Below are positions 9,287 to 63,282 of a stretch of DNA of 64,000 bases, in pieces. Where the stretch lies: the NCBI GenBank assembly GCA_002778785.1, contig PEZS01000011.1:192995-256994 (forward strand). The letters run 5' to 3'. Position 1 is the stretch's first letter, and every line of letters starts with the position of its first letter. The DNA comes from Bdellovibrionales bacterium CG10_big_fil_rev_8_21_14_0_10_45_34 (GTDB lineage Bacteria; Bdellovibrionota; Bdellovibrionia; Bdellovibrionales; 1-14-0-10-45-34). The translations under genes were made by a program, and so were the position numbers. The notes below the pieces were generated by a model, which worked only from the letters and a program-made list of their open reading frames with translations, did no database searches and was not told the DNA's origin.

Positions 9287-9366
9287 GGGTTTCTAACAAA
9301 TTGATTCAACTTGATCCAATTCAGCTTGATCCAATTCACCTAGTCTAATTGCGTAAGTATAAAACA

Positions 9367-9397
9367 TTGACCTTCCAATGGTTGGAGGGTTTAGACT
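9367..9397 (+). promoter_or_regulatory. second MerR/CueR-type promoter-operator, facing cueR and the multicopper oxidase
   Basis: TTGACC (9367-9372), 19-bp spacer, TAGACT (9392-9397). Dyad GACCTTCCA-N5-TGGAGGGTT has 2 mismatches. Confidence 0.7.
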
Positions 9398-9404
9398 GTG
9401 CCGT

Positions 9405-9797: not shown

Positions 9798-9898
9798 TGC
9801 GCAGTTTGTACCTATCAAAAGCAAACTGAGTCTTCTTCTTTGGGACAACATAAACTGCTGAGTCGTTGAAACTGCACCCAGCGCAAGGAGGATACTAA

Positions 9899-42672: not shown

Positions 42673-42784
42673 AAAATCCTCCTGAAAAAGAGATTCGGGA
42701 CAAAAAACTGCACGACTCTATCCAGATGTCTACTGGTGAATGTTCCCCTGAGGGGATGCCTGCTTTCTTACGTTGTTTCATACT

Positions 42785-46682: not shown

Positions 46683-48982
46683 CTCACTTCGCTCCTTTGC
46701 TCTTTTGAAAACTGCAGCAACTTTCTTTGAAAGCTTCCGCTATTTTTACTAAGGGCACTCTCAAGATAAGAAATATCTTCAGGGGAAGTGGTCGAAAGCC
46801 AATATTCCAGTTTGTTTGGTTCATATCGCAAAATCGTTCTATCATGATCTCGCATAAGGTAGATTTCTGAAAAAGACCCTTTTTCTCTTTGAAGTGAATC
46901 AATTGCCATTTGGTCAACTTCAGTAAGAGACAAGATTTGTGAGTAGTTCCTTGGGTCACCCCTTTGTTGAAGGATCGCCTTAGAATGAGTGTTTTGTAGA
47001 ATGCTAGAGCCTGCGAGGTTAGAGGTAACCTTTTCTAGATCTTGAACGATGATGATCACTCCGCTGTAGTACTTTCGTAGCGTTGAAACAAGTTCATCAA
47101 CAAACATGGATTGAGTTTTCAGTAGCGAGAAAGCAACTTCATCGAGTACTAACCATGAAAATCTTTGCCTTTTAGTATCTCGGACCCTGGCCCAAACCGT
47201 CGCGCACACGATGAGCTGGACGACTCTTGCAAGGTCCTCAAACTCAGTAAGTCCCTTAAGATCAAATGTCATAATGTCTTGATCGAGGGGGATGCTAGCA
47301 TCGGTATCTAGGAACTGTGCAAAGAAACTTCCTTTACCCCATGGCTCGAGCAGCATGGCCAACTTCTTCTCTTCTTCGCTTCGAGGACCTGATAACTCGT
47401 CAATGAGGTAGCTGATTGGTCTACGCGGCAACTCCTTCATTTCAAACAGGTCCGTTAGTTTTTCCCACAACAAATGCCGAATCTCTACAGATGACGACTT
47501 TCCGTCGAATCTAATCATCTCCAAGAAAATCTGAAAAATGTGCTGACGCCTTATGGTCTCTTCTTTGGAGTTATCAGATTTAGCCAAGAAGAATGGCCCC
47601 ATTTGAAAGCCTGTATCTATATCAAAGCCCATAACCTTTCCGCCCAAGAACTTTGTTAACTTGTTATAGGACCCTCCAATATCGACGATAAAAATATTCG
47701 GATTCAAACTCATGCTTTGAGCAATGAGTGAATTGACAAAGAAACTCTTTCCAGCTCCGCTGGTTCCGCTAACTAGCCAGTTGTAATTTGCGACGGCTGG
47801 ATCGATGGGATCAATTGAGTATATGCTACCGCTTCTGGTGTGAAAGGTTACAACCGGCCTCGCATCTCCTTTAGACGGTCTGAAGAAGGGCAAAAAATGT
47901 ATCGCGTTAGAACTTAAGACTGTATGCAGTTTTTGGTTTTTTCCTCTGAAAGTAGGGATGCACTCCAAATAAGAATCGAATGTACCGATTGCACTCTCTT
48001 CGAATTCACAAAAATTCATTTTGGCGGCAGCTTGCACGATATGCCCGAGAGCTCGACTCTGAAAGACGCCCAAAGACTCCGGCATTCTTAAGCCGACATT
48101 TGCCTGGATGGCTACGATGTTCTCAGAGTTCTCTGCTAAAATTCTGAGTATTTCATCGATTTGGCGAATCTGACTTTCGATCTTTTGAAGATCTTTGTTC
48201 CCTCTTTTTGACGCCAGCAAATTTCTCTTCTTTTCAAGACTCTTACTGACCGGCTGTGTTTGTTTAATCTTTAACCTTATTGATAAATCTATGGGATATG
48301 GCAGCGACGTAATCGCCTCTATCATACCCAAATGAGTTTCCGCTTCTGGCAGCTTAGTGAGTTCTACCGAGCGAAAGACGTCTCCATCTATTTTGAGATG
48401 GCCGGGGCGGATTTCGATGTGGGGCCACTCATTCTGAAGATCTTCGGACTTTTGCAGCGACTGAGCGCTCGAGTTAATCTCTTTTAGAACTTCCTCTTTA
48501 CCAAGAACTCTGGCGTTAAGACCCATGGCCCTAAGGGCCGACAACATCAGAAGCCGTTTTTCATTGCCCCCTTGCCGGCCCGAATTACCCGGACTCCAGT
48601 AACAAACAATTATCTTCTGAGAGGAGACTTGAGGCAAATCTTCACTCATCTCACTTAGCTCACTCGCTAGCTTTGAAAGCAAAAGCTGGCGTCCGTATTT
48701 GTTCTCCGACAAGAGAGAGTTTTCTAGCTGAGACTCCACCCAATCAGAAAAATGCACTCTCTTTCTGTAGATTATTTGAATCTCTTCGCCAGCTTCAAAA
48801 TGAAAAGCTGTTCTCCAAAGGTTGTGAAGCTGATTTATCTTTTGATCAGTGAAAAATGACGTATCTATACCGTCTACGGAGTATAGCCATCCGCTACATT
48901 TTTTTGCCCCAAGTGTTCCGTCTTCTGCTACTTCATTAACGGGCCAAAAATCTTTCAATGAAAAGGCCTTAGGCTCGAGCAT
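46679..48982 (-). CDS. VirB4/TrbE/TraC-family type IV secretion ATPase
   Basis: 767 aa. Walker A VSGTSGAGKSFF, Walker B WLVLDEVAF, and overall VirB4 length and layout. Confidence 0.8.
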   Translation of the reverse strand: MLEPKAFSLKDFWPVNEVAEDGTLGAKKCSGWLYSVDGIDTSFFTDQKINQLHNLWRTAFHFEAGEEIQIIYRKRVHFSDWVESQLENSLLSENKYGRQLLLSKLASELSEMSEDLPQVSSQKIIVCYWSPGNSGRQGGNEKRLLMLSALRAMGLNARVLGKEEVLKEINSSAQSLQKSEDLQNEWPHIEIRPGHLKIDGDVFRSVELTKLPEAETHLGMIEAITSLPYPIDLSIRLKIKQTQPVSKSLEKKRNLLASKRGNKDLQKIESQIRQIDEILRILAENSENIVAIQANVGLRMPESLGVFQSRALGHIVQAAAKMNFCEFEESAIGTFDSYLECIPTFRGKNQKLHTVLSSNAIHFLPFFRPSKGDARPVVTFHTRSGSIYSIDPIDPAVANYNWLVSGTSGAGKSFFVNSLIAQSMSLNPNIFIVDIGGSYNKLTKFLGGKVMGFDIDTGFQMGPFFLAKSDNSKEETIRRQHIFQIFLEMIRFDGKSSSVEIRHLLWEKLTDLFEMKELPRRPISYLIDELSGPRSEEEKKLAMLLEPWGKGSFFAQFLDTDASIPLDQDIMTFDLKGLTEFEDLARVVQLIVCATVWARVRDTKRQRFSWLVLDEVAFSLLKTQSMFVDELVSTLRKYYSGVIIIVQDLEKVTSNLAGSSILQNTHSKAILQQRGDPRNYSQILSLTEVDQMAIDSLQREKGSFSEIYLMRDHDRTILRYEPNKLEYWLSTTSPEDISYLESALSKNSGSFQRKLLQFSKEQRSEVR

Positions 48983-49343
48983 CTGTACTCCCTTCAGAAA
49001 TCAAATGGCAAGCCAACCTTTTTGGTAAACTGAGGAATCTCAGTAGCCTGAGAAAAAGCAATCCGCCCAATGAGGCTCGGACTAACACTGCAAATAGTCC
49101 CACTAAAGCCGCAAGCAGAAATGCCCATGCACGCGGGATATGAAGGAACTGCGCCAGCTCACCACCAAAAACGACAAGAACACAAAGAACTACGAGCTCG
49201 CGAACGCTCACGCCAAATATGTAAAAGTTTGAATCGAGATTTCGGTAAACAGGGGTACTCATGCTAGGCCTTCTTTCATTCTTACGAAAGAGACGCCAAC
49301 CACTTAAAAGGAGCCAAGAGATCTTTTCTTGGCTGATGATCAC
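48969..49343 (-). CDS. VirB3/TrbD/TraL-like small membrane protein
   Basis: PVYRNLDSNFYIFGVSVRELVVL followed by two TM helices. GTGA start/stop overlap with the pilin-like gene. Confidence 0.5.
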   Translation of the reverse strand: MIISQEKISWLLLSGWRLFRKNERRPSMSTPVYRNLDSNFYIFGVSVRELVVLCVLVVFGGELAQFLHIPRAWAFLLAALVGLFAVLVRASLGGLLFLRLLRFLSLPKRLACHLISEGSTDARA

Positions 49344-49636
49344 ATAAAATAATCTATGATCATCTGGGCTGCATTAACCACTACTAATCCGATGACCCCA
49401 TAAACCAGACGAGTAAGACCCGATGATTCGCCTTTAGCGATCAAAAGGCCAGCCCAAGCAATAAATCCAATGATTACAACGTTCATTAATCTTACCAAAT
49501 CTGCGATCAACTCACCGATTCGACCTTCTAGCCCGCTCTGCGCAATCAAAAGTTGCGGCAAAAACGCCACCACTATCAAAGGCAAAACAAACGAACGCAA
49601 TTTCAAGGGTTTATGTTTATGTCGACTGTCTCTCAT
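49340..49636 (-). CDS. VirB2/TrbC-like pilin subunit
   Basis: 98 aa: long signal peptide, two hydrophobic helices separated by the KGESSG loop, and first position in the operon. Confidence 0.6.
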   Translation of the reverse strand: MRDSRHKHKPLKLRSFVLPLIVVAFLPQLLIAQSGLEGRIGELIADLVRLMNVVIIGFIAWAGLLIAKGESSGLTRLVYGVIGLVVVNAAQMIIDYFM

Positions 49637-52152: not shown

Positions 52153-52714
52153 ATACCTTTAAAATCTTGTAAACCGGGAGGCCCATCACATTGTCGACGG
52201 CACCTTCAACGCTCGAAATGAAGTTACCTCCAGCGTCCTGAATTCCGTAGGCGCCAGCCTTATCCATTGGACTTCCGGTCGCCACATAGGCTTCTATCTC
52301 GCACTTTGTAAGCGGACAAAACTTAACCTTCGAAGTATCACTCGACTCCACCCAACTGTTCGTCACAGAATCAAAAATGGCGAATCCTGTAACAACTCTG
52401 TGTACCCTGCCCGAAAGTCGAGCGAGGTAATCTATTGCTTCTTCTTTAGACTTTGGTTTACCCAAGATGCTCCCGTCCAATTCGACAACGGTATCGGCAC
52501 CGACCACGGTAGCTGCGCTGGCTTTCTGAGCTCGACTTGTAGCTAGCACTGCCTCGATCTTTTGCCTAGCCAGAGCTGTCACAGCTTTCTCAAGAGTCAG
52601 GTTTTTATCAATAATTTCCGATACTTTAAGTGTGATTACAGAAAACTTGAGTCCAGCTTTTTTAAGTAACTCAAGTCGACGCGGAGACTGTGATGCCAAG
52701 ATGAGGCTTCGCAT
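52124..52714 (-). CDS. maf: Maf-family nucleoside triphosphate pyrophosphatase
   Basis: LILASQSPRRLELL, GADTVV and KAGAYGIQ. Confidence 0.9.
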   Translation of the reverse strand: MRSLILASQSPRRLELLKKAGLKFSVITLKVSEIIDKNLTLEKAVTALARQKIEAVLATSRAQKASAATVVGADTVVELDGSILGKPKSKEEAIDYLARLSGRVHRVVTGFAIFDSVTNSWVESSDTSKVKFCPLTKCEIEAYVATGSPMDKAGAYGIQDAGGNFISSVEGAVDNVMGLPVYKILKVFDENGWKFN

Positions 52715-52743
52715 AATTCGATGAAACCACGGAAAGGACCGAA

Positions 52744-53640
52744 ATGGGAGAGTTATTGCTAGTCATCGCGCTGCTCATGCTCGGTCTATCTGTGTTTCTA
52801 TTTGTCAATTCGCTCATTTCAAAAAACATCAACGACCAAGCGCTTTCGTGGGCTTCCGGAGAAGAGCCGACTAAATCGAAAAGTCCGTTCCTAGAATTAT
52901 CAAGACCCCTTGTTCACCGCTTTGCCATTGGACTTGCGCAAAAGGTGAAATCTACTAACTACCGTAAATCCATTGAACTCAAAATCAACAACTCCGGCCT
53001 GATGGCTGAGCTCAACGTGGATGAGTTTATTGGCCTGCAAATTCTTTGGGGCGTACTCTTTCCGTTTTTGGTTCTTTTTCTCAATGTCACGCTGGAACTG
53101 GGCTACCCGCCCTTGGCTGTTGTCACATTCGGCGCCTTCGGCTTGTACTTTCCCAATCTTCACACGAATACTCAGAGAGCCCAAAGAGTCTCTTCGATTC
53201 AGGCAGACTTACCTTTTTTCATTGATCTTCTGGCTTTGTCGACAGAGGCAGGACTCGACTTCATTGGAGCCATCCAGCGTGTGGTTGAAAAAGCGGAAGG
53301 TTCTGTGCTTGGTCAAGAGCTTCAAACAACATTGAATGATATTAAACTGGGAGCTTCGCGCGCTGAGGCTCTTAAAAGATTTGCCGAGAGAGTTGATCTA
53401 AAAGAAGTTACAAGTTTTGTAACAGTGCTTGTGGATGCAGACCAAACCGGCGCAAGTATCGGCAAGGTCCTTAAGGATCAAGCCATCCAAATGCGTCTGG
53501 AGCGCTTTGCTCGCGCCGAAAAAGCGGGAGCCAGGGCCAATCAACTCATTTTGCTGCCGCTACTAATTTTCATTTTGCCAGCCGTCTTCATTATAGTTTT
53601 TGGTCCAATTGCACTTCAATTTACCGGTCAAGGGGGATAG
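52744..53640 (+). CDS. type II secretion system F-domain protein, TadC/TadB-like platform protein
   Basis: N-terminal TM plus a single T2SSF domain: LPFFIDLLALSTEAGLDFIGAIQRV...LGASRAEALKRFAERV...ADQTGASIGKVLKDQA...LLPLLIFILPAVFIIVFGP. Confidence 0.8.
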   Translation: MGELLLVIALLMLGLSVFLFVNSLISKNINDQALSWASGEEPTKSKSPFLELSRPLVHRFAIGLAQKVKSTNYRKSIELKINNSGLMAELNVDEFIGLQILWGVLFPFLVLFLNVTLELGYPPLAVVTFGAFGLYFPNLHTNTQRAQRVSSIQADLPFFIDLLALSTEAGLDFIGAIQRVVEKAEGSVLGQELQTTLNDIKLGASRAEALKRFAERVDLKEVTSFVTVLVDADQTGASIGKVLKDQAIQMRLERFARAEKAGARANQLILLPLLIFILPAVFIIVFGPIALQFTGQGG

Positions 53641-53641
53641 G

Positions 53642-54010
53642 TTGTCTTATAGAGATCTTCCCCACATTCAGATACTCAAACGGGCTTCTCAAAAGCCCCC
53701 TTTTGAGACTGTTTACGAAGCCCGTGGAACACTCGCTCGACTGCGCGGCCTACTTTTTGAGTCACAAATTCCAGATGGACACGCTCTTTGGATTTCAAAC
53801 TGTAACAGCGTGCATACATTTGGCATGACGTATCCGATATACGTCGCATTTCTCAACAGAGACCTGCGAATCATCAAACTGTTTGAGGGTCTCAAGCCTA
53901 ACCGAATCTCACCGGTAGTTTGGGGAGCCAAAAGTGTATTAGAGTTCATTCGGCCAAAGAGCGGAGTTCTCCCGATACAAGAAGGGGAGGAGCTTTATGT
54001 GGTCAGCTAA
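53642..54010 (+). CDS. DUF192 (COG1430)-like protein
   Basis: ARLRGLLFES...GHALWISNCNSVHTFGMTYPIYVAFLNRDLRII. TTG at 53642 follows AAGGGGGA. The track start at 53600 overlaps the tadC-like gene. Confidence 0.55.
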   Translation: MSYRDLPHIQILKRASQKPPFETVYEARGTLARLRGLLFESQIPDGHALWISNCNSVHTFGMTYPIYVAFLNRDLRIIKLFEGLKPNRISPVVWGAKSVLEFIRPKSGVLPIQEGEELYVVS

Positions 54011-55580
54011 AGTTCTTCTCGGTCCAGATCAAGGAAAGGCCTTTGCCTTAACAGAGGGCGTACATACTTTCGGACGAGGTTCAGATTGCAGTGTTGTCAT
54101 CAACAGCAAAGGAATCTCAAAGCGACATTTCCAAATAAAAGTAAGCGGATCATCACTTGCTATTCAAGATCTTGGCTCGTCAAACGGCACATTCGTAAAT
54201 GGAGTAAAGATAAAATCCGCTCGGTTAAAACTAGGAGATCAGATTCAAATCTTCGACACGATTCTGGGAATCTCAGCTCTCCTCCATGCCGTGGAGCAAC
54301 CGAAACGCACTCATCAGATTGGCTCAAGCACAATTCCATTTGGCGCCCCTCCTAACCTGGAGCCAAATACTCAGGAAGCGGGGAGCTCGCAATTGAATTG
54401 GGATGCGTCAAGCTTTTCTACGAAAGTAAACAACTGGATAGAGCATTACATTATGCCAGCTGTTTACGAAATCTCTCAAAAAAATGATTTCAAATGGGTG
54501 CTTGCCGGTTTTATCGGAAGCTTGGCACTTCTCATCACTGTCTTCTCTTTAGCCCCGATGATACAAATTACTAAAGAGAGCGTCGACAAGGAAAGTGGAA
54601 GAAGGGCTCTATCGATTGCACAAATGCTTGCCGAAAGATACGAGATTGCAAATCGGCAAGGAGTTGCAAATCAGTTTGACACCAGACGTGCGGAAGTAGA
54701 AGAAGGTGTTGAGGCTGCTTATATTATCAAGGCCATTGACGGCTCCACGTTGGCGCCGGCGAGACTGGCAGGAGAACACATCAACCTACCCTTCGTGCAC
54801 ACTGCTCGAAGAAGCGACCAAAAAATGATGGAGCTTATAGACTCCGATCGTATTGGCGCCAGTGTCCCCATTATGGCTTACAGCTCAGAAATGGGCGCCT
54901 ATGCACCTGTAGCTTACTCGGTAATTATATATAACAAAGGATCTTTAGCTGTTGATAACGGTAGAGTTCTGGCTTTGTTTGTAAAAGTGCTTATGCTTTC
55001 GTTCATTCTAGGCGCAATCTGTTTTGTTCTTCTATACAGAGTTATTAAGAAGCCTATTAAGGCACTCAAAGATCAAGTACATCAATCTCTCTCAGAAAAG
55101 ATAGATATGGTAAACGAGGAGTTTGCGCTAGACGAATTTAGCGATCTGGTAATCAATATTAAAGCAGCCATTCAAAAAGCAAACCTCCTTACAGATTCCA
55201 GCGACTCATTGGCTTCTGCGACGGTTGATCACTCTCTTGAGGCCGAAAATCTATCTCGTTTGATTGCACAGCCGTGTATGGCAATATCGTCTGACAAAAA
55301 GATTTTGGCAATCAATCAGGCATTTGAAGACATCTCTGGCCTACGATCATTGCAGCTCAACCAATGCGAGATATCTCAGATACCAGATCAATCGTTACTC
55401 CTGTCGCTTGAAGAGCTTCTGGGTAACGCCACCCAAAATCCTACGCAAGTACAAAGTCAAACTTTGGACTTCAATGGAATTCCCTATAGCCTAGATGTTC
55501 AAGCCATTCAATCGAACCGAGGGGTCGAATACTATCTTGTAGTCGCCACCGACTCAACAGGAGCCCAAAATGTCATCTAA
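53997..55580 (+). CDS. FHA-domain transmembrane sensor-like protein (FHA, TM, periplasmic region, TM, HAMP-like, PAS-like)
   Basis: FHA motifs FGRGSDCSVVINSKGISKRHF...SSNGTFVNG. TM segments at about residues 165-190 and 320-345. C-terminal AISSDKKILAINQAFEDISG is PAS-like. Confidence 0.65.
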   Translation: MWSAKVLLGPDQGKAFALTEGVHTFGRGSDCSVVINSKGISKRHFQIKVSGSSLAIQDLGSSNGTFVNGVKIKSARLKLGDQIQIFDTILGISALLHAVEQPKRTHQIGSSTIPFGAPPNLEPNTQEAGSSQLNWDASSFSTKVNNWIEHYIMPAVYEISQKNDFKWVLAGFIGSLALLITVFSLAPMIQITKESVDKESGRRALSIAQMLAERYEIANRQGVANQFDTRRAEVEEGVEAAYIIKAIDGSTLAPARLAGEHINLPFVHTARRSDQKMMELIDSDRIGASVPIMAYSSEMGAYAPVAYSVIIYNKGSLAVDNGRVLALFVKVLMLSFILGAICFVLLYRVIKKPIKALKDQVHQSLSEKIDMVNEEFALDEFSDLVINIKAAIQKANLLTDSSDSLASATVDHSLEAENLSRLIAQPCMAISSDKKILAINQAFEDISGLRSLQLNQCEISQIPDQSLLLSLEELLGNATQNPTQVQSQTLDFNGIPYSLDVQAIQSNRGVEYYLVVATDSTGAQNVI

Positions 55581-56517
55581 GGCTCTTGCTCCCAAGGATG
55601 TGTCGAACCAAGCCGTAATATTAATTGGGGTTGATCAGGGTAAAGTTTTCGATCTGAAAGAAGGGTTGAACTTTGCGGGGCGTTCTCTTGACAACGACAT
55701 TGTTATCAATGATCCAAAAACGAGTCGCAAGCACTTTGTATTGAATGTCAGCGTCGGACAAGTTCACTTCAAGAATCTCAGTCCACAAAATGAAATCCTC
55801 ATCAATGGGAAGTTTCTCCTTGAAGGGCGTCTCGAACCAGGCACCTTGATCCTTCTCGGCGATACGCAAATTAAAATTCAAACCTCTAACCTGATGAAGG
55901 CAATCCCTTTTGGCGGACTCCCGGTAGAGAAGCCAAAAAACCAACGAGTATCTCTTTCGACTCCTCCCAAGCAGGTATCAAAGCAATCGCCCGCAAACCC
56001 AATCAAGTACGCAATATACGCGGCAATACTTATCGGAGTTGGCTATCTTGTTTTGAATTCACCCAGTACGATTCCGCAGACTTCCAATCCTGGGGCAGAA
56101 ACCGAAGCAATTTCTCCTTCAGAAGATGCCTCGTCGACACTTCTTCGAGAACTGTCGGCATCCGGAAAAGACACACAGAACTACACAGAGGCGCAGGCCG
56201 CTTTTATAAGAGGATTTAGGGATTATCGCGAGGGCAATTACAGAAGAGCCGCAGATTCTTTTGGCGCAGCTTTAAGTTTGTATCCCACCCATCAACTTGC
56301 TCAGAAATACCTGGCGCTAGCGCAAAGAAAACACGACGAGTTGATTCAAAATACGATGGTCGAGGCCAGAAGACTTTTTGAGCAGGGTTCGCTGCGAAAG
56401 TCACAAGCTAAATATAAGCTTGTTGTGATTTTATTGCAGGACCCAAATCATTCGCTCTACAAAGAGGCGCATGATAAGTTTAACGAAATCGAACTTTTGT
56501 TGAAGAGTGAATTTTAA
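55570..56517 (+). CDS. FHA-domain, TM and TPR-like protein
   Basis: FAGRSLDNDIVINDPKTSRKHF, TM segment YAIYAAILIGVGYLVL, and C-terminal TPR-like helices (YREGNYRRAADSFGAALSLYP). Confidence 0.65.
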   Translation: MSSKALAPKDVSNQAVILIGVDQGKVFDLKEGLNFAGRSLDNDIVINDPKTSRKHFVLNVSVGQVHFKNLSPQNEILINGKFLLEGRLEPGTLILLGDTQIKIQTSNLMKAIPFGGLPVEKPKNQRVSLSTPPKQVSKQSPANPIKYAIYAAILIGVGYLVLNSPSTIPQTSNPGAETEAISPSEDASSTLLRELSASGKDTQNYTEAQAAFIRGFRDYREGNYRRAADSFGAALSLYPTHQLAQKYLALAQRKHDELIQNTMVEARRLFEQGSLRKSQAKYKLVVILLQDPNHSLYKEAHDKFNEIELLLKSEF

Positions 56518-56519
56518 AA

Positions 56520-58466
56520 ATGTTGGTGATTCGCATACTTCTTGATTCAAATGAATTTAAGATTCTACCGCTCGATGGGGATCGGCAGTTTACTATAGGA
56601 AGAGATGCTTCGGTAGATGTGATTCTACCCGATCCGACAGTCTCTAGAAAACATGTTGTCGTCAAGAAGGTCGACACTGAATGGGTTATTCAGAAAACCT
56701 CCCGATTTGGAACTCTCACGCAGTCTGGTCGACCCGTCGAATCTGCAAAGATAAAAGCAGGCGATGTATTTGAGATCCCACCATTTACGTTTATGGTAGA
56801 GGAACTTGACGAAGAGAAAAGCAAGGTCCTTGCAGAAACGCGACTATTAAAGCAAGAGGCTACAAGCTCTCTAGTTTGGCAGGACCCACTAGAGTCTGAA
56901 TTGTTGGGCTCCCAACCCGAAATTCAGAACTCCAATGGCAGTCTCGCTACATCTGATGAGGAAGAGGGCGCCAGCACTTTTGTTGGCGACAATCCCCTAG
57001 GCCTTCAAAAGGATCTGGTCCCCTGCCTGAGAATTACATCCCCAACCGATCCCGAACAAATTTACTTACTCAAAAGCGGGCCCTGGATTATTGGGCGGGC
57101 CCAATCCTGTGATATCGTTATTAACGACCCGAAATCTTCACGTACACACATTGAAATCAGTGTCTCCGGAGATAAGTACTACGCCAAAGATCTTCATAGC
57201 TCAAATGGCACACTCTTCGGTGAAGCTGCCCTTTCGACATCAAAAACTCTCATTCAAAGCGGCGATTATTTGGTCGTGGGCGAAACCAAAATTTACTTCG
57301 AGATATTAGATCCTGCCGCTCAGTCTTTGAGCCTAGAGTTGCAACAAAGTCCAATAACACACACCTCGATGGGCTCCACACGCTTGCCACGGAATCGATT
57401 TGCTACACTGCCGCATCTACAGGGGATTGATAAGAAGCATTACCTTCGAGGTGCAGCGGTTTTCATTGTGATTTTGGCTGTATGGCTCGGAAATCAAAAG
57501 AAAGATACAGTTAAGATTACACAAAGCCATAACAATCCCATCGATCTTCTTACCCCTGAGCAGAAGACGGCTGTTGAAACAACCTATCAGTTGGCAAAAA
57601 ATCTTTACATTCGCGGTAGCTACGAATCAGCATCTCTCGAACTTGAAAAGCTCCATCAAATAATCCCATCCTATAAAGACTCCACAGAATTGGCTAAGTT
57701 TTGTTATGAAGCAATTCAGCTGCAGAGTGAGCATCAGAGAATAGAAGAAGAAGAGTCGAGAGTAAAAGAAGTACAGCAGAAGGTAGGCGATATCATTGAA
57801 CGATGTGAACAAAACTGGTTGAAAACTCGACGATCTATCGAAGTTGAAAGTTGTCTGGCACCCGCCCTGGAGCTAGATCCTGCAAATTCGAAGGCCGCCA
57901 ATCTTGTACAGATGGCGTCTTCGTGGGAGAGAGACGTCGACAATAAAGAGGCCGAAAAACACAGATACCAACAATTGGTAGCGCTTGGAGTAAAAAAATT
58001 CCAGACTGCCCAAAACGCCCACAAAGCAGGCGAGCTACTAAAAGCTAAGTCACTTTACGAAGAACATCTTTCTTCAAGCTATCCTGATCCAAAGGATCTC
58101 AAAGATCGTTCCCGAGAAGGGTTGTCGAGGCTTGAGCAACAAGTTTTAAAAAGAACGAAGGGTTTAAAAGAGGCGGCTCGAAATGAGTATAATAAAGAGA
58201 ATATTAAACAGGCGCTCCTGCTACTGAGAGAATGCCTCAAGATTTCGCCCACGGACCCCGAGGCCAAGGACCTAGAACAGAACTGGAGTCAGGAGCTTTT
58301 TAGAAACATGAAGCGCCTGTACACCGATGCGATCCTTGAAGAGAATCTCGGCCAACTCGAGGCGGCTAAAGCCAAATGGAAGAAAATCATAGCGTCCGAT
58401 CTCAATGGAAATGAGTATTACGAAAAAGCGCGCAGTAAACTCAAAAGAATCGGGGAAAGCTTTTGA
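56520..58466 (+). CDS. tandem-FHA, TM and TPR-repeat protein
   Basis: Two FHA cores (TIGRDASVDVILPDPTVSRKH; IIGRAQSCDIVINDPKSSRTH...SSNGTLFG), TM segment AAVFIVILAVWLG, and a long helical-repeat C-terminus. Confidence 0.65.
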   Translation: MLVIRILLDSNEFKILPLDGDRQFTIGRDASVDVILPDPTVSRKHVVVKKVDTEWVIQKTSRFGTLTQSGRPVESAKIKAGDVFEIPPFTFMVEELDEEKSKVLAETRLLKQEATSSLVWQDPLESELLGSQPEIQNSNGSLATSDEEEGASTFVGDNPLGLQKDLVPCLRITSPTDPEQIYLLKSGPWIIGRAQSCDIVINDPKSSRTHIEISVSGDKYYAKDLHSSNGTLFGEAALSTSKTLIQSGDYLVVGETKIYFEILDPAAQSLSLELQQSPITHTSMGSTRLPRNRFATLPHLQGIDKKHYLRGAAVFIVILAVWLGNQKKDTVKITQSHNNPIDLLTPEQKTAVETTYQLAKNLYIRGSYESASLELEKLHQIIPSYKDSTELAKFCYEAIQLQSEHQRIEEEESRVKEVQQKVGDIIERCEQNWLKTRRSIEVESCLAPALELDPANSKAANLVQMASSWERDVDNKEAEKHRYQQLVALGVKKFQTAQNAHKAGELLKAKSLYEEHLSSSYPDPKDLKDRSREGLSRLEQQVLKRTKGLKEAARNEYNKENIKQALLLLRECLKISPTDPEAKDLEQNWSQELFRNMKRLYTDAILEENLGQLEAAKAKWKKIIASDLNGNEYYEKARSKLKRIGESF

Positions 58467-58504
58467 CAGGCTCAAGATCGAATCCCCACAAGGAACTTTA
58501 AATC

Positions 58505-59179
58505 ATGAATCCTGGTGAACTGATCATATTTCGGGGAGACGAGTCCAAGTATCCGACCCCAGCGTTTCACTACTTCTCAAATTTAGATTTGTTTGTGGTA
58601 TGCACTCCCTGGGGCCAACATTCTGAAGCAAACTATGTAATTGAGCGTACTGCCGAGTTTTTTGAAAAGTTTCAAACAGACTTAGAACTTACGTCTCCGG
58701 TACCCATCGACACCTCATACACTTCTGAAGAAAATAGAATACGAAACACACTGTACCAACTGAATGCCGAGACTTTGGAGCGCTATAACCAAAAGGAATT
58801 CGATTGGGGCTGTGAAATTTTATTGGCCTTCGAGTGCCGTCATCAAGTTGTCATAGGAAGAGTCGGGCAAATTAATGTTTTCCATTTTTCAGCCGGTAAT
58901 CTAGTTCAACCGATTTTAGGTTCGTCAGGGTTCAATCGGTGGAATTCTAGCGGTGAGCGTGCACCCTTTCCGAGACAAGTTTTGGGCATGGAGTCCTCTT
59001 TCGCCAGCGATATCACGACCTTTTCTAAAATACCGTCTTCAACAGTTCTTTTTTCGCAAAGCCCTTGGTATGCACACGAAACATTTAAACCCGCAATACC
59101 TGATCAAGCAGAAGAAACTTGGAGGTTAAACACCTCAATCTCGCAGAAACCGTACTGGCAAGTTTCCCTGAGCTTTTAG
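58505..59179 (+). CDS. PP2C-fold-like protein lacking catalytic aspartates (putative pseudophosphatase)
   Basis: Aligns by eye to PP2C blocks with acidic residues replaced: VVCTPWGQH for ADGMGGH, IGRVGQINVF for GDSR, LFSQSPW for LCSDGL. Confidence 0.4.
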   Translation: MNPGELIIFRGDESKYPTPAFHYFSNLDLFVVCTPWGQHSEANYVIERTAEFFEKFQTDLELTSPVPIDTSYTSEENRIRNTLYQLNAETLERYNQKEFDWGCEILLAFECRHQVVIGRVGQINVFHFSAGNLVQPILGSSGFNRWNSSGERAPFPRQVLGMESSFASDITTFSKIPSSTVLFSQSPWYAHETFKPAIPDQAEETWRLNTSISQKPYWQVSLSF

Positions 59180-59886
59180 TCGAAAGCACTTTCGTCGAAT
59201 TCGCTATATCCCCCATCATCAGAGGGCGTCTCTTCCTTTTCCTTTTCACTTGAAACTTCTTGGCGTTGAGGCTGCCCGAGATTTCTCTGTTCGTATCGAG
59301 TTGCTTTTCGAACTCTCCTCACTTTCCGCACCGGTCTCGCCTTCTTTTTGCCTACCACCTTGTCGCTAGAACCAAAGTAATAAGCCACGCCTATCATGCC
59401 AATAATGCCGGCGGTGGTGCGTCCCGTGAAATACAAAGCCGGCCCCACCTCCCCTTTCAGGCTCCAAGGACCCCCGCTAAATAGATATTCAAATCCCCCG
59501 AAGCCCCTCACTCCCAGACGAAATTTATCATTTGTGTCTACAGTTCCAAGACCCAGACCTGACAATAGGCCAGCCCCAGCGTAGAACAAGAATGTATTCC
59601 AGTTACGCCGACTGCGTTTCCATAAATCATCAACATCATAAAAATAATATGCGTGGCTTACGCCCGCTATGGCCACTTGTTCAAAATCGTAGCCAACGTC
59701 AAAGTTCCAGTTTTGTCTCCAGTTAGCCCAGGTCGTGTACCTAACTACTGAGGGCTTTCCCACCAGTAAGGCAACACCAGACTCGCCGCTGTCAAAACCG
59801 ACAAACCTTTGTGCGTATGAGTTCGAGGTAAAAATCGTTACAAAAACAAAGCATAACAACAACAAACGTCTTGTATTACATAGCAT
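59176..59886 (-). CDS. small outer-membrane beta-barrel protein with a highly charged C-terminal tail
   Basis: Signal peptide ...NSYAQ. Alternating aromatic and Gly strands (GVAYYF). The tail has KKKARPVRKVRRVRK followed by an acidic stretch. Confidence 0.55.
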   Translation of the reverse strand: MLCNTRRLLLLCFVFVTIFTSNSYAQRFVGFDSGESGVALLVGKPSVVRYTTWANWRQNWNFDVGYDFEQVAIAGVSHAYYFYDVDDLWKRSRRNWNTFLFYAGAGLLSGLGLGTVDTNDKFRLGVRGFGGFEYLFSGGPWSLKGEVGPALYFTGRTTAGIIGMIGVAYYFGSSDKVVGKKKARPVRKVRRVRKATRYEQRNLGQPQRQEVSSEKEKEETPSDDGGYSEFDESAFD

Positions 59887-59939
59887 ACGTTGATTGTAAC
59901 TTTCAGCCGGTTAGAATATCAATACATAGAGGAAATATT

Positions 59940-60743
59940 TTGACCGCGCTGAGAAAGAACACCTTCACCGAATTACCGCGCTTTTTTGCCGAGTCACCTG
60001 TTTATGGTCCTTTTAATAGCCGACGCTACGGACCTTCCTTGGGAATCAACTTATCAAGTCTTAAAGAGAAGGCCTGTTCGATGAACTGCGTCTTTTGTGA
60101 AGCTGGGCCTACAAATATCCGACTAAAAGAGATGAAGGCCTCTTCTCTACCAACCCCCGAAAATATTGTTGAAAAGTTAAGGATTAAAATTGAGCACAGT
60201 TTACGGACGGAAAAGGTCCAACTTCCAATACATTTTTCTGGAGCTGGCGAACCCACGCTACATCCTTATTTTGATGAAATTGTCGATGCCGTCATAAACT
60301 TACGAAATACCGTGACTCCAGATTCACCAATAAGAGTCTTTACCAACGGTACATTCTTCGACCAAAGAAAAGTAATTTCATCGCTAAACAGGGTTGATGA
60401 AAGGATAGTTAAGGTCGACTGTGGTCGCGATTCGACAATGAAGAGTCTCAATCGACCTCTGAAGCGTTTCACGACGGCCAAATTGTCATCCGGCTGCAGA
60501 CTGTTGAAAAATTGCATCACACAATCTCTATTCGTAAAAGGCCCCGCATCAAACCTCAGCGACGATGAGATCGAATTGTGGATTGAACTCATAGGCATTA
60601 TAAAACCACTTTATTCGCAAATTTATTCGATAGAGAGACAACCGAGTGAACCCTTCGTTGTCGAGGCTACCGAAGATGAGCTTGAAATGGTTGCCGCGAA
60701 ACTTCGAAAACGCACTGGCATTGAATGCCGAGTATTTATTTGA
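59940..60743 (+). CDS. radical SAM protein (COG0731-like)
   Basis: VYGPFNSRRYGPSLGINL followed by CSMNCVFC (CxxxCxxC) and GAGEPTL. TTG at 59940 after AGAGGA is preferred. The track start at 59871 overlaps the divergent gene. Confidence 0.7.
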   Translation: MTALRKNTFTELPRFFAESPVYGPFNSRRYGPSLGINLSSLKEKACSMNCVFCEAGPTNIRLKEMKASSLPTPENIVEKLRIKIEHSLRTEKVQLPIHFSGAGEPTLHPYFDEIVDAVINLRNTVTPDSPIRVFTNGTFFDQRKVISSLNRVDERIVKVDCGRDSTMKSLNRPLKRFTTAKLSSGCRLLKNCITQSLFVKGPASNLSDDEIELWIELIGIIKPLYSQIYSIERQPSEPFVVEATEDELEMVAAKLRKRTGIECRVFI

Positions 60744-60752: not shown

Positions 60753-62543
60753 CTACCATTTAGGGGCAGGAATTTTTTTACGGAAATAAGGTAGAGCAAG
60801 GAGCAGGTCTAGCGAAGTGGGATACCCACCCAGCTTGTCAAGCGGACCCCACTCTTGATAGAGTCTTTCGTTTTCAAGCCAAATCATTCGATCTAAAATC
60901 CGGTAGCGGTAACTCCTCATAAACCTATCCCGATACTCATCCGTCTCTTCAGATTTTGACTCCATTGCAAAATACCACGCCAGTAGTTCAAGCGCCGACA
61001 TTTCTTTGCAGGTTCGGTACTGCGATAGCACCTCTTTAGGACTAACGTTGGAGTTCAAAACTGCGAAGCAGGCGGATGGAGGCTCATGAATCTCCTTGAA
61101 ATTCGGAAGATTAGACCGGGCAACATATGTCCACTCTTGGTTTTGAGTGGTCCTTCCAAGAGTAAGTAAGTAATCCCAATCCTCCAGTAAAATCGCCCAG
61201 ATTGCCAGAAGGTCCGCAGACACAGTACCCGGCTTCATAGCCTTTGCTCTCTTCCAGGCAGACGCCCTATCTTCCGTCTTCGCTAGCAAACTTCTTATTT
61301 CGATCTCAAAGCTGTTTTTTGACTTGGTGTATGAATCATATCCAGCACTTTCCAAATACTTCGCAAAATCTGCGATATACTTTTGAGTAGTGGGCTCTCT
61401 ACCCAAGAGGGGACTCACTTGGAATCGATCGATCAAGTCGTTGAAGAGCCGTGGAGTTTCACCACATTCGAACGTGATATTGTCGATCCTCGCCGAACAG
61501 GAAATACTCTCTGGCCAGTACCCGGATTCACCAAATATAATGCTTTGCTTATTTACGACATTTCTATTCGAGCGAAAAAGAGCGACTAAACTTTGACCTA
61601 CCTCTGACGAGGTTTGCAGCCCAAAGTCATCTGTTAGTAAATCAAAAATTGTTGCACCAGCATCGATTAAACTCACATTAAAATCTACAGCCCAATTGAT
61701 TCCTTCATCTCGTTTCTTTTGCGCCGGCTTTAAAAGAAACACGATCTGTGATCGTTCATTTAAAAGGTTTGTCATTGGGAACCGATACTCGTTAAAACCT
61801 TTCAAAGGACCGTTCAGACCCACTAAGAAGATATTTGTAGAATCAAAACGATCCATCTCATCGAGATTTTCAAAAAGCAAACTCAATTGCTCATCGAAAT
61901 TTTCAATTCGAGCGGTGTGAAGAACATCTTGAGCGCTTTTGCCAGCCTTCAGAAGAGTTTCCTGCGTGTACATCAAATCTGAGACGTGAATTATAGCAAA
62001 GAAAGCATCCTGCGGATCAACATCTGACTTTAGCCAGGCTTGGAACAAGGGATTTGTTTCTTCAAAAAGTCGAAAAAAACCCTTTTCGGTGACAGATATG
62101 TTGTCATCGAAAATCTCAAAGCCCTGATTGATGCCTGAACGCCTCCAAACAGGAGGTCCGCCACTGAAGAACGCTGTTCGAAATCCCCTAGAGACTGCAA
62201 CTTCTGCAGAAGTTACCTGCTCTTCTGATAGCCAACCCATTCGATTGTTTCGTACTTGCGTCTGAGGGGGAATTTTGCTGGTCAAAAGCGATGCAAGAGC
62301 CGGCACGGTGAGAACACTTGGAGTAAAGGCGTGGGTGAATCGAAGTCCAGTCTGGCAAAGTCGCTGAAATCCCGATTTTTCGGCGCTCATATCTGACCCA
62401 CACGATACGAAATTGTTCGAGAGTCGATCTACAGCAATGACAAGTATGGAGTCTTGCGGCCTGTGCTGAGCCTGACAACCCAAAAGACCAGCAAAAACTG
62501 ACACCATAATTGCCAGCTTCGAAGGTAAACACAATTTCAACAT
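60753..62543 (-). CDS. sulfatase-fold (alkaline phosphatase superfamily) lipoprotein with non-canonical active-site residues
   Basis: Lipobox FAGLLGC. ILVIAVDRLS and HAFTPSVLTVPALASLLT align to the sulfatase DD and CxPSRxxxLTG blocks, with Thr, Ala and Leu in place of Cys, Ser and Arg. ATG at 62543 is preferred. Confidence 0.55.
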   Translation of the reverse strand: MLKLCLPSKLAIMVSVFAGLLGCQAQHRPQDSILVIAVDRLSNNFVSCGSDMSAEKSGFQRLCQTGLRFTHAFTPSVLTVPALASLLTSKIPPQTQVRNNRMGWLSEEQVTSAEVAVSRGFRTAFFSGGPPVWRRSGINQGFEIFDDNISVTEKGFFRLFEETNPLFQAWLKSDVDPQDAFFAIIHVSDLMYTQETLLKAGKSAQDVLHTARIENFDEQLSLLFENLDEMDRFDSTNIFLVGLNGPLKGFNEYRFPMTNLLNERSQIVFLLKPAQKKRDEGINWAVDFNVSLIDAGATIFDLLTDDFGLQTSSEVGQSLVALFRSNRNVVNKQSIIFGESGYWPESISCSARIDNITFECGETPRLFNDLIDRFQVSPLLGREPTTQKYIADFAKYLESAGYDSYTKSKNSFEIEIRSLLAKTEDRASAWKRAKAMKPGTVSADLLAIWAILLEDWDYLLTLGRTTQNQEWTYVARSNLPNFKEIHEPPSACFAVLNSNVSPKEVLSQYRTCKEMSALELLAWYFAMESKSEETDEYRDRFMRSYRYRILDRMIWLENERLYQEWGPLDKLGGYPTSLDLLLALPYFRKKIPAPKW

Positions 62544-62607
62544 AGCAATTATCATAACTTGACCACTATTGATCGTCACAAAGATAATAGAGCTCAGGAG
62601 TGCAATA

Positions 62608-63264
62608 ATGCTTACACAACAAATCTTTTCAAGTGCACAGAACGGCGCAGAGTTTATTTTGTGGTTTTTACTTCTATTGAGCGTCGTTAGCTTAACATTT
62701 ATCATAGAAAGAGCCATATCGCTAAGATCGGCAAGGCAGTCATCGTTAAGGTTTCGAAAGAGAGTCGAGGAAATACTTCAAGCCAATCAGCTCAAAGATC
62801 TTGAAGAACTCTCTCGCGACAGAGAGTCTCTTGAGGGGCGAGCGCTGGCTTATGCGATCAGACATATGGAGAGCAGCAATCCTGCTTCCAATGAAAATGG
62901 AATCGAAGAAGTTTTTAATTCCTTTATACTAAGCCAACGACCATATCTTGAGAGATACCTCGGTTTTTTGGCAACTGTTGGTTCGAATGCTCCTTTTTTA
63001 GGTTTGCTAGGTACCGTTCTTGGAATTATGCGGGCTTTTCATGATTTAGGCCTAAGCCAAGGGGACGCGAGCCTGGTGATGGCAGGCATCGCAGAAGCTC
63101 TTGTAGCAACCGCTGTAGGTTTGTTTGTCGCGATCCCCGCTGTTGTTGCCTACAACATATTTCAAAAGCAAGTAAGGCAAATCATCTCAGGAATTGAGAG
63201 TTTAAGGGAATTGTGCGTGGCGTATGCGAAACAAAAAAATGGCCAAGTTTTAAAGGCAAACTAA
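62608..63264 (+). CDS. MotA/TolQ/ExbB-family proton channel
   Basis: LGLLGTVLGIMRAF and AEALVATAVGLFVAIPAVVAYN. ATG at 62608 has an AGGAG RBS. Confidence 0.85.
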   Translation: MLTQQIFSSAQNGAEFILWFLLLLSVVSLTFIIERAISLRSARQSSLRFRKRVEEILQANQLKDLEELSRDRESLEGRALAYAIRHMESSNPASNENGIEEVFNSFILSQRPYLERYLGFLATVGSNAPFLGLLGTVLGIMRAFHDLGLSQGDASLVMAGIAEALVATAVGLFVAIPAVVAYNIFQKQVRQIISGIESLRELCVAYAKQKNGQVLKAN

Positions 63265-63282
63265 TCAGTAACGAGGATAACA

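Follow-up and report, generated by a model that had tools for sequence, protein, structure and literature searches.

A conserved tadC operon of Bdellovibrionales encodes FHA-domain membrane proteins and a PP2C-fold pseudophosphatase

The tadC locus of Bdellovibrio bacteriovorus is known to be needed for prey invasion. Its genes, Bd0470-Bd0475, have already been termed an operon, in which a Bd0470::tn mutant neither attaches to nor kills prey, and a Bd0474::tn mutant attaches, but its prey are neither killed nor rounded (Duncan et al. 2019, PMC6561027). Expression is specific to attack phase (PMC6561027, PMC12034629). The tadC gene is essential and separate from tad locus 1, with tadZA-tadB, rcpA, flp and others located away from Bd0470, and at the invasive pole TadC-mCherry shares its position with the secretin RcpA and with RomR (bioRxiv 10.64898/2026.07.08.737194). 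With respect to the neighbouring products, a BACTH assay detects binding of Bd0474 to Bd0075, a TPR protein of the periplasm, and AF-Multimer predicts Bd0473 with Bd0475 at an ipTM of 0.604 (PMC12034629). FHA proteins adjoining Tad/Kil genes have likewise been flagged as likely signalling parts in published operon work.

A related system is the Kil machine of Myxococcus xanthus, a Tad-derived, FHA-rich predator machine encoded at two loci (PMC8460266), whose KilH is the listed ortholog of Bd0470 (Seef et al. 2021, PMC8460266). Immediately ahead of kilH lie MXAN_4648, with FHA and TPR, and MXAN_4649, with FHA; KilD also combines FHA and TPR, and the ATPase KilF bears an FHA domain of its own. 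By published description of the MXAN genes, the Kil clusters list no DUF192 or PP2C-like gene.

The window analysed here, a stretch of 64,000 nucleotides from a divergent uncultured Bdellovibrionales MAG, holds a tadC gene followed by five accessory genes (Table 1), one fewer in all than the seven plus-strand genes counted in an earlier sequence-only reading. The junctions given in that reading are correct, comprising a 14-nt overlap (53997/54010), an 11-nt overlap (55570/55580) and a 2-nt gap (56517/56520), and P5 and P6 are separated by 38 nt. The DUF192 gene has an uncertain start, either the TTG at 53642 chosen by gene callers or the TTG at 53600. Upstream of tadC, the promoter-like site matches its consensus at 9 of 12 positions and is a candidate only, since such sites are no more numerous in the region than shuffled expectation.

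Table 1. Features of the tadC operon in window coordinates (aa, amino acids; TM, transmembrane segment).
Feature	Nucleotides	Strand	Residues (aa)	Remarks
Promoter-like site	52587..52615	+		Upstream of tadC, inside 5' end of divergent maf; weak consensus match
tadC	52744..53640	+	298	Tad/Flp pilus inner-membrane platform protein
TadC T2SSF domain	53218-53601		159-286	
DUF192 gene	53642 (or 53600)..54010	+	~115-122	
P3	53997..55580	+	527	Bd0472 ortholog
P3 FHA	54009-54266		5-90	Cytoplasmic; Pfam FHA 1.5e-19
P3 membrane part			TM1 168-186; TM2 327-345	Periplasmic domain of ~140 aa; TM scan
P3 C-terminal part	55275-55553 (PAS-like)		427-519 (PAS-like)	Cytoplasmic; HAMP-like linker, then PAS-like domain
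P4	55570..56517	+	315	Bd0473 ortholog
P4 FHA	55618-55881		17-104	Cytoplasmic; Pfam FHA 1.2e-10
P4 remainder			TM 144-162; TPR-like ~200-315	Pro/Ser/Lys-rich linker; one TM (TM scan); periplasmic TPR-like domain
P5	56520..58466	+	648	Bd0474 ortholog
P5 FHA1	56532-56804		5-95	
P5 Thr153	56970-56987		153	Sole invariant Thr in disordered linker between FHA1 and FHA2
P5 FHA2	57027-57299		170-260	
P5 TM	57450-57491		311-324	
P5 TPR domain			~345-648	Long; periplasmic
P6	58505..59179	+	224	Bd0475 ortholog; cytoplasmic PP2C-fold pseudophosphatase
P6 loop motif	58679-58702		59-66	D59-x-E-x-T63-S-P-[FY]66; most conserved motif of Bd0475 family

Each of the six products aligns along its whole length with a single Bdellovibrio counterpart, and the set is the Bdellovibrionales tadC operon, the colinear ortholog of Bd0470-Bd0475. 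Gene order is identical to that of B. bacteriovorus HD100 and product sizes are nearly so, although the accessory proteins are far more diverged than TadC: full-length similarity stands at 61% for TadC (as identity to the Bdellovibrio copy, related locus L010), 38% for the DUF192 product (also identity), 27-31% for the FHA proteins and 27% for the last gene. Both genomes have the divergent maf-yggS-proC-divIVA genes and a downstream sulfatase-exbB-exbD group, whereas two additional genes, encoding a radical SAM protein and a protein of 236 aa, lie between operon and sulfatase in the window, which also has a T4SS-like insertion upstream of divIVA.

The arrangement is conserved far beyond chance. 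Of the 81 Bdellovibrionales loci examined, 59 have all six genes in this order, and most of the other 22 are on contigs whose end falls within the operon. Junction spacing is conserved across related genomes as well, the median gaps being -1, -14, -4, -1 and -1 nt. A DUF192 gene comes after tadC in 78 of these 81 loci, and its product, a small cytoplasmic protein confirmed by Pfam as the DUF192 protein first named (E 7.3e-9), lacks a signal peptide, a hydrophobic leader being absent from the N-termini. Synteny also takes in the housekeeping neighbours maf-yggS-proC-divIVA, the sulfatase gene and exbBD in a slowly rearranging region, and linkage is for this reason weaker evidence of shared function.

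The platform call of the sequence-only reading, a T2SSF-domain protein like TadB/TadC, holds in profile search (Pfam T2SSF, E 5.9e-17), and the protein is a genuine TadC, with three hydrophobic segments in a TM scan and 58-67% identity to Bdellovibrionota TadC proteins, that of B. bacteriovorus included. In each of 80 related loci tadC is the sole T2SSF gene detected within +/-10 kb, a solitary position that differs from that of kilH, which adjoins kilG (TadB), kilB and pilins. Precomputed Pfam matches to the window's called genes include no T2SSE/TadA, secretin, prepilin peptidase or Pkinase, and six-frame motif scans of the window found neither a Flp-type signature nor a Hanks catalytic loop, in agreement with the earlier statement that the window lacks a TadA/CpaF ATPase, secretin, prepilin peptidase, Flp pilin and Ser/Thr kinase. 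The suggestion of a platform for an apparatus encoded elsewhere is borne out by Bd0470, which serves a Tad machine with its other parts at other loci. On the strength of orthology, the ATPase, TadB, secretin and pilins of this MAG's machine would likewise be encoded elsewhere in the genome, and TadC would be the second inner-membrane platform subunit of a predation-essential Tad (Kil-like) pilus machine. The parallel already drawn with Kil is apt, FHA+TPR and FHA genes flanking kilH as well.

In terms of the three membrane proteins, Pfam confirms the four FHA domains that had been read from the sequence, one each in P3 and P4 and two stretches in P5 (1.3e-27). Matches to TPR and PAS families score weakly in the window copies but hold up across orthologs. 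For P3, PAS_9 scores 0.013 in the window copy, PAS families match several of 31 orthologs (best 6e-8), and residues 177-401 match the NCBIfam ArsS-family sensor region (2.4e-5); its topology is that of a sensor kinase from which the kinase is absent. TPR_2 matches P4 at 3.4e-4 and is found in 20 of 30 P5 orthologs. Full-length identity to orthologs is 31-35% for P3, 28-33% for P4 and 27-31% for P5, and within these divergent proteins each of the four FHA domains keeps an invariant Gly-Arg and Ser, the pThr-contacting residues, across 60-69 species. The Asn-Gly pair is invariant in two of the four over the same species, and the conserved Asn has been lost from P5-FHA1. Such retention is compatible with a putative phosphothreonine gating of assembly.

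The riskiest of the earlier claims was that of a dead PP2C-like protein, since P6 of the window has no Pfam match. Here, several approaches confirm it. The AF2 model built from a 110-sequence alignment has a pLDDT of 89.4, and its top 50 Foldseek matches in the PDB are all PPM/PP2C phosphatases, the best being tPphA (E 5e-13, TM 0.60-0.68); the family profile also finds PDB sequences of this fold (E 1.2e-4). At the four catalytic Asp positions, 0-6 of the 110 family members carry an acidic residue, and P6 itself has none of the four metal-binding aspartates. Modelling and alignment together identify Bd0475-family proteins as PP2C pseudophosphatases. Among the nearest structural neighbours of P6 is PppA of the P. 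aeruginosa H1-T6SS (Foldseek E 1.7e-10), and the PpkA/PppA/Fha1 threonine-phosphorylation pathway is similar in placing an FHA scaffold and a PP2C-fold protein on a contact-firing envelope nanomachine. Unlike PppA, P6 would be unable to reset a switch, because it lacks all of the metal-binding Asp residues; the operon and window also differ from H1-T6SS in having no kinase, and the operon's FHA proteins are membrane-anchored with periplasmic domains.

The loop motif of P6 is a candidate phosphorylation site: of the 110 sequences, 109 have the Thr and 98 have F/Y at +3. Together with the E-K-T153 motif of P5 (Thr in 59 of 60 sequences), it resembles E-T-T-S-V-F of GarA. The P6 form, E-x-T-S-P-F, and the P5 form, E-K-T, are also reminiscent of the DgcB tail E-K-pT14-S-I-V17 (PMC6733907), and GarA/OdhI and Bdellovibrio DgcB are self-ligand switches with FHA domains of P3's sequence type. 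Whereas DgcB and GarA carry their motif on an N-terminal tail, the putative sites here lie in a loop of a folded pseudophosphatase and in an inter-FHA linker. By our own estimate such a short likeness has a chance of ~6% per 224-aa protein, and P5 mostly has Gly at +3 of its motif, a residue atypical of FHA ligands in that position.

Taken together, these observations make it probable that the FHA proteins and pseudophosphatase form a pThr-reading scaffold and signalling complex that licenses the Tad machine. The five accessory proteins, co-translated with TadC, would most likely assemble as a transmembrane complex at the invasive pole, with FHA domains on the cytoplasmic side and, in the periplasm, the sensor-like domain of P3 and the TPR arrays of P4 and P5. 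Periplasmic or prey-contact cues may be read by the TPR and sensor domains, and phosphothreonine marks, placed by a Hanks-type kinase from another locus, by the four FHA domains, and the machine would thereby be licensed for the stage following prey attachment. The complex may itself supply the pThr ligands, in its pseudophosphatase and in the P5 linker; if so, FHA-pThr contacts would hold or rearrange a complex whose dead PP2C could not erase them.

A different and rather unlikely account is that the FHA proteins are phospho-independent elements from which the Tad basal body is built, much as SctD/YscD/PrgH builds the inner-membrane ring in type III secretion, and that they oligomerise around the TadB/TadC platform and use their FHA domains only as protein-protein modules. 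Pfam Yop-YscD_cpl does match all four FHA domains, the TM scan gives the SctD topology of N-terminal cytoplasmic FHA, one TM and periplasmic domain, and the FHA gene adjoining kilH was labelled PrgH-like by HHpred (Seef et al., PMC8460266). In a word-indexed search, P5 moreover has as its best non-self matches two-FHA SctD proteins of chlamydial type, with a similar tandem-FHA layout (29% identity, 39% query coverage, E 1e-13). Nonetheless, on the periplasmic side the proteins carry TPR or sensor-like regions in place of ring-building motifs, and the canonical pThr-contacting Arg and Ser are invariant. The P3 FHA is also much closer in profile to pThr-binding domains (FhaA 3e-17, GarA 3.5e-14, Bdellovibrio DgcB (6hbz) 9e-14) than to YscD (3e-3). 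Finally, the Bd0474 mutant still attaches and the tadC mutant does not, a difference that favours a regulatory or late role over a core structural one.

We consider it improbable that the FHA and pseudo-PP2C genes regulate envelope growth or division, as do actinobacterial FhaA/FhaB/PstP, and have only a transcript and a conserved neighbourhood beside maf-yggS-proC-divIVA in common with tadC. The order-wide synteny of the region from divIVA to exbBD, NCBIfam FhaB/FipA matches (8e-15 and 2e-19) and the widespread generic occurrence of FHA followed by PP2C (as at locus L093) are in its favour, but overlaps at the codon level with tadC and with DUF192 persist in 78-80 genomes, the Bd0474 mutant has a specific post-attachment predation defect, expression is confined to attack phase, and FHA and FHA+TPR genes adjoin the TadC ortholog in the kil cluster despite its different neighbourhood. 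Least probable is that the FHA-TM-periplasmic proteins channel proton-motive work into the Tad machine or envelope from the conserved orphan ExbB-ExbD pair encoded two genes downstream, and so act like GltG in the gliding machine of Myxococcus (FHA, TM, Pro-rich linker and periplasmic domain; binds the TolQ/ExbB-like AglR; PMC3169522): NCBIfam GltG matches P3 (1.7e-9), P4 (8e-5) and P5 (7e-11), in each case no further than the FHA and the linker next to it, P4 has a Pro/Ser/Lys-rich stretch before its TM, and ExbB-ExbD lies downstream in nearly all related genomes whose contig extends there, with no TonB gene called nearby, yet domain searches find no TonB_C in P3, P4 or P5, exbBD is a separate transcription unit past a convergent sulfatase gene, and its adjacency is weak evidence because synteny is conserved across the whole region.

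The find is real, but earlier work has already described the operon, the position of tadC apart from the main tad locus, and the FHA, TPR and PAS proteins encoded beside it (PMC6561027, PMC12034629, bioRxiv 10.64898/2026.07.08.737194), and the reading of pThr readers serving a machine encoded elsewhere, although reasonable, is already the field's working hypothesis. What the present analysis adds to the pThr-reading scaffold that we favour is the pseudophosphatase identity of the Bd0475 family, its D-x-E-x-T-S-P-F motif resembling known FHA-binding pThr tails, and the invariance of the pThr-contacting residues of the FHA domains.

The plus-strand genes at 52744-59179 number six, one fewer than the seven claimed in the sequence-only reading, and are listed below together with other features of the window. 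In all other points the original observation is confirmed. Their junctions measure, in order, +1, -14, -11, +2 and +38 nt, and a promoter and terminator scan, in which the number of sites was not greater than the shuffled expectation, returned no convincing terminator inside the operon. The divergent start codons of maf and tadC lie 29 nt apart (52714-52744), such that each promoter must overlap the coding sequence of its neighbor; this head-to-head layout is also found in relatives. At 53997-54010 the stop of the DUF192 gene and the start of the P3 gene overlap by 14 nt, and because 78 genomes share this overlap (median -14, range -125 to -10; related loci L010-L091), translational coupling of the two genes is suggested.

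Features of the tadC operon and its surroundings
Feature	Position	Strand	Product	Remarks
Copper-handling module	6995-12121			P-type ATPase with heavy-metal-binding domain, MerR-family regulator, three-domain multicopper oxidase
Long ORF	32141-35257		1038 aa	No Pfam match even at E 0.1; adjoins a FecR-domain gene and unannotated ORFs
T4SS-like gene set	41776-49636	-		Between ferritin/rpoD and divIVA; also holds several ORFs without family match
TrbI/VirB10-like gene	43404-44390	-		
VirB4/TraG-type P-loop ATPase	46679-48982	-		
TrbC/VirB2-like gene	49340-49636	-		
TadC (Bd0470 ortholog)	52744-53640	+	298 aa	
DUF192	53642-54010	+	122 aa	Length per gene callers; alternative TTG start at 53600
P3 (Bd0472 ortholog)	53997-55580	+	527 aa	
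P4 (Bd0473 ortholog)	55570-56517	+	315 aa	
P5 (Bd0474 ortholog)	56520-58466	+	648 aa	
P6 (Bd0475 ortholog)	58505-59179	+	224 aa	
Unassigned protein	59176-59886	-	236 aa	Signal peptide, Lys/Arg/Glu-rich tail, no family match; stop end convergent with the P6 stop (4-nt overlap); found in some relatives only
Radical-SAM gene	59871-60743	+		In about a third of relatives
Sulfatase/LTA-synthase-like membrane protein (- strand), then ExbB-ExbD	60753-63690			No TonB gene called nearby

The TadC-like assignment of the first gene held against the Pfam T2SSF profile, with a score of 62.2 bits, above the gathering cut-off of 25.2 (E 5.9e-17), over profile positions 1-124 of 125. The protein carries this single domain and hydrophobic segments at aa 3-21, 95-113 and 268-286. 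At 61% identity to the Bdellovibrio copy, and with conserved synteny, it is an ortholog of the experimentally studied TadC. Specifically, the Bdellovibrio CP169237.1 locus (L010) is recognizable as Bd0470-Bd0475 by its product sizes (384/675/228 aa, compared with 386/674/228 aa in PMC12034629), and the window locus is a further member of this described, partly characterized locus, with no new system involved. The second gene scores 36.1 bits against DUF192 (COG1430; Pfam cut-off 27, E 7.3e-9), and a literature search returned no paper linking DUF192 to Tad pili.

With respect to function, Bd0470-0475 has been reported as one operon (PMC12034629), Bd0470 and Bd0474 having already been placed in one operon by Duncan et al. 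2019 (PMC6561027). Mutation of Bd0470 (tadC) abolishes both attachment and killing, whereas mutants in Bd0474, termed an 'uncharacterized FHA domain protein', attach without killing or rounding prey (PMC6561027). Bd0474 has two cytoplasmic FHA domains and an extracytoplasmic TPR domain and binds the TPR protein Bd0075 in a two-hybrid assay; a contact between Bd0473 and Bd0475, the latter labeled hypothetical, has been predicted with an ipTM of 0.604 (PMC12034629). A 2026 preprint (bioRxiv 10.64898/2026.07.08.737194) finds the Tad machine essential for invasion, localizes TadC-mCherry to the invasive pole, where the secretin and RomR also sit, and describes tadC as not deletable and as uniquely apart from tadB and the main locus, with other Tad partner genes in B. 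bacteriovorus at separate loci; it also observes that the neighbors of tadC encode FHA/TPR/PAS proteins, the link to which it explicitly leaves open. In the 64-kb window, Pfam searches of called genes bore out the claimed absence of TadA/T2SSE, secretin, prepilin peptidase and protein kinase, and six-frame motif scans detected neither a Flp signature nor a Hanks catalytic loop (HRDLKxxN). The proposal that the operon serves a Tad machine encoded elsewhere, under phosphothreonine gating, is partly supported: the first part has support by way of the ortholog, and the second is plausible. As a whole it is sound and coincides with the field's existing hypothesis.

The operon proved to be a stable unit. 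A one-genome-per-species scan yielded 80 loci, every one from Bdellovibrionales, whose ORFs were searched with HMMs made from three known copies per gene; with the window, 59 of 81 loci hold the complete colinear six-gene set, and the remaining 22 are mostly contigs that end within the operon. Median junctions over the loci are -1, -14, -4, -1 and -1 nt, and at each locus tadC was the only T2SSF gene detected within 10 kb. The sequence-only reading would have been refuted if the FHA genes of relatives never co-occurred with T2SSF genes; within Bdellovibrionales they always do. The window proteins are identical to entries of the MAG 'Bdellovibrionales bacterium CG10_big_fil_rev'. TadC matches of 58-67% identity are very numerous across Bdellovibrionota, including B. 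bacteriovorus. Two TadC relatives share the gene order TadC-DUF192-FHA-FHA-2xFHA-~228 aa, with maf-yggS-proC-divIVA divergent on the other side, and give full-length, one-to-one blastp matches for TadC (61-64%), DUF192 (38%), P3 (31-35%), P4 (28-33%), P5 (27-31%) and P6 (25-27%). The FHA proteins and P6 had drawn almost no matches in a word-indexed search, P5 and P6 essentially self only; this near-blank is a sensitivity artifact, given the shared gene order and the blastp matches. The view of P5 and P6 as orphans was likewise rejected, as orthologs of both were recovered via the conserved TadC neighbor and a full phmmer scan. Identity across the order is very uneven within the operon (TadC 55-65%, DUF192 ~38%, FHA proteins 23-36%, P6 16-25%). 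In these alignments TadC is slow-evolving and its partners fast-evolving, yet the phosphothreonine-binding residues of the FHA domains are kept.

The T4SS-like gene set upstream is absent at this position in both L010 and the MAG locus L011, and is therefore probably an insertion in this lineage. A tie between it and the operon was considered and rejected, four housekeeping genes lying between them and the cluster being absent at this position in L010 and L011, the two relatives whose upstream neighbors were inspected. Pfam searches of ten unannotated ORFs nearby gave no useful match. Among related Bdellovibrionales genomes with a long enough contig, nearly all have the sulfatase-ExbB-ExbD trio downstream of the tadC operon, which could reflect plain synteny or a functional link (cf. 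GltG-AglRQS). An improbable alternative for the FHA proteins, suggested only by architecture and adjacency, is a role as GltG-like coupler to this conserved orphan ExbB-ExbD pair.

Pfam places one FHA domain in P3, one in P4 and two in P5, in agreement with the four originally claimed. Hydropathy indicates two TM segments around a ~140-aa periplasmic stretch in P3 and one TM segment each in P4 and P5, which places the FHA domains in the cytoplasm and the TPR-like C-terminal parts in the periplasm. P3 is laid out like a sensor kinase, with TM, periplasmic domain, TM, HAMP-like linker and PAS in succession, but has an FHA domain in place of the kinase; for P5, 20 of 30 orthologs lend support to its TPR character. 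Across 60-69 aligned orthologs, the Gly-Arg of the beta3-4 loop and the Ser of the S-x-x-H beta4-5 loop are 100% conserved in all four FHA domains, and the His of the latter loop is present in 50-100% of sequences. The Asn-Gly of the beta6-7 loop is invariant in P3-FHA and P5-FHA2; P4 has it in 53/65 sequences, and P5-FHA1 carries F/Y instead. Against structures, the P3 family profile matches the phosphothreonine-binding FHA domains of FhaA (3e-17), GarA/OdhI (~4e-14) and Bdellovibrio DgcB (9e-14) far more closely than YscD (3e-3). Taken together, the invariant binding residues and these profile affinities make the four domains look like working phosphopeptide readers rather than degenerate SctD-type modules.

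This bears on the alternative that the FHA-TM-periplasmic proteins build a structural ring of the SctD kind. Topology, Yop-YscD_cpl matches and a tandem FHA layout like that of SctD support such a ring, and it is weakened by the intact phosphothreonine pockets, by the milder phenotype of Bd0474 mutants and by the periplasmic parts. Specifically, a search of P3-P5 for the periplasmic families of the SctD/YscD type III inner-membrane ring, with their ring-building-motif domains after the TM, detected none; these proteins instead contain TPR (P4/P5) and a sensor-like domain plus PAS (P3). Weaker still is the explanation that the FHA and PP2C-like genes form an envelope or division regulator that is a mere neighbor of tadC, given that the codon overlaps are conserved, that the phenotype is one of predation, and that FHA genes are linked independently in Kil, the Tad-derived prey-killing machine of Myxococcus.

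The boldest claim of the sequence-only reading, a dead PP2C-like protein, concerns P6, which has no Pfam or NCBIfam match. A full phmmer scan recovered 122 stand-alone proteins as representatives, almost all of them ~210-250 aa long. The AF2 model built with a 110-sequence alignment reached a pLDDT of 89.4 and a pTM of 0.89 (single-sequence pLDDT 42.8), and its top 50 Foldseek matches in the PDB are all PPM/PP2C: tPphA (E 5e-13, TM up to 0.68), T6SS PppA (1.7e-10), PstP (~1e-9), Stp1, RsbX and SpoIIE. The family profile searched against PDB sequences also matches tPphA (E 1.2e-4), with 13 of 14 weak matches being PP2Cs; hhalign against PstP gave the right register at a weak E of 0.095, and hmmsearch against one genuine PP2C a weak 7.9 bits. 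The case for a PP2C fold rests on the AF2 model, the Foldseek matches and the profile match to tPphA. In the catalytic columns, T-P-W-G stands for D-G-x-G, G-[QHS]-P for G-D-S, S-[RS]-S for S-D-G and P-F-W for D-N, such that all four metal-binding aspartates are gone; D/E occurs at these positions in 0-6 among 110 sequences. With the PP2C beta-sandwich kept in the predicted structure and the metal-binding aspartates replaced, P6 is, on model and alignment, a PP2C pseudophosphatase outside the active enzyme family, and the original call survives.

On an unrelated metagenome contig (L093:10001-12033), the gene immediately after a two-FHA gene encodes a PP2C with DGMGG, GDSR, SDGL and DN intact, and this arrangement likely represents the active state ancestral to P5-P6. 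The surroundings of two distant FHA matches were uninformative for Tad: P0013 has no Tad genes nearby, and P0021 adjoins genes for a histidine kinase and a genuine PP2C.

The best-conserved feature of P6 is the loop between helices 1 and 2, D59-x-E61-x-T63-S-P-[FY]66, which lies away from the old active site; its Thr is kept in 109 of 110 sequences, and position +3 is aromatic in 98 of 110. The loop motif matches the GarA/OdhI tail E-T-T-S-V-F, and the same pattern recurs in the DgcB phospho-tail E12-K13-pT14-S15-I16-V17, which is bound by the DgcB FHA domain. In P5, exactly one Thr outside the FHA cores is invariant (T153, within [ED]-K-T-x-[VI]-G of the gap-rich inter-FHA linker). These residues make a thin case for the P6 T63 loop and P5 T153 as candidate phosphothreonine marks for the operon's FHA domains, which a kinase encoded elsewhere would write, the motif being short and the +3 residue of P5 an atypical Gly. 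A TadC motif, E-[IV]-T-S-F-V, was dropped as a possible FHA ligand, being buried in the helical core of the T2SSF domain and having a Thr that is <90% conserved in a 75-sequence alignment. The published AF-Multimer prediction for Bd0473-Bd0475 is compatible with P6 as an FHA ligand.

Building from these candidates, the five accessory genes might encode a latch on the predatory Tad machine that is self-contained and works through phosphothreonine, a proposal that we regard as on balance improbable. A prey-contact kinase encoded elsewhere would phosphorylate P6 T63 and P5 T153; Bd3148, a kinase for which the DgcB paper suggests several substrates and a role at prey encounter (PMC6733907), offers a candidate type. 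The operon's own FHA domains would then bind these marks, with P6, a PP2C fold without catalysis, acting as a phosphothreonine-presenting or -shielding adaptor and hence not as an eraser. Once the predator is attached, the latch would fix both TadC and the Tad platform in an invasion-competent state. The T6SS PpkA/PppA/Fha1 pathway differs, in that its combination of a Hanks kinase and an active PP2C with an FHA gene is not present in the window. For Kil, Seef et al. 2021 report Bd0470 as the reciprocal-BLAST ortholog of KilH (3e-45) and stress an excess of FHA proteins in kil clusters; in their table the immediate neighbors of kilH include one gene with FHA and TPR and another with FHA (PMC8460266). 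FHA genes adjoin the platform gene in both systems: three follow tadC here, and MXAN_4648 and MXAN_4649 precede kilH.

The way in which predators activate their Tad/Kil machines on meeting prey is acknowledged to be an open question, for which FHA proteins near Tad/Kil genes have repeatedly been named as candidates without a proposed mechanism (PMC8460266, PMC12428579 and the 2026 preprint); a 2025 review again calls them 'promising candidates'. Our analysis sharpens this question, as the six-gene tadC operon keeps its gene order throughout the sampled Bdellovibrionales genomes and its 'hypothetical' last gene emerges as a predicted PP2C pseudophosphatase with an invariant Thr motif like that of known FHA ligands. 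As far as the literature searched shows, the pseudophosphatase assignment and the candidate phosphothreonine motifs seem not to have been described before; they are modest additions. Specific residues can now be named for mutation in B. bacteriovorus. If true, the latch would show a dead PP2C in a new role, serving a type IV filament machine as FHA ligand and adaptor, and would give the question of FHA proteins in Kil/Tad systems a concrete circuit.
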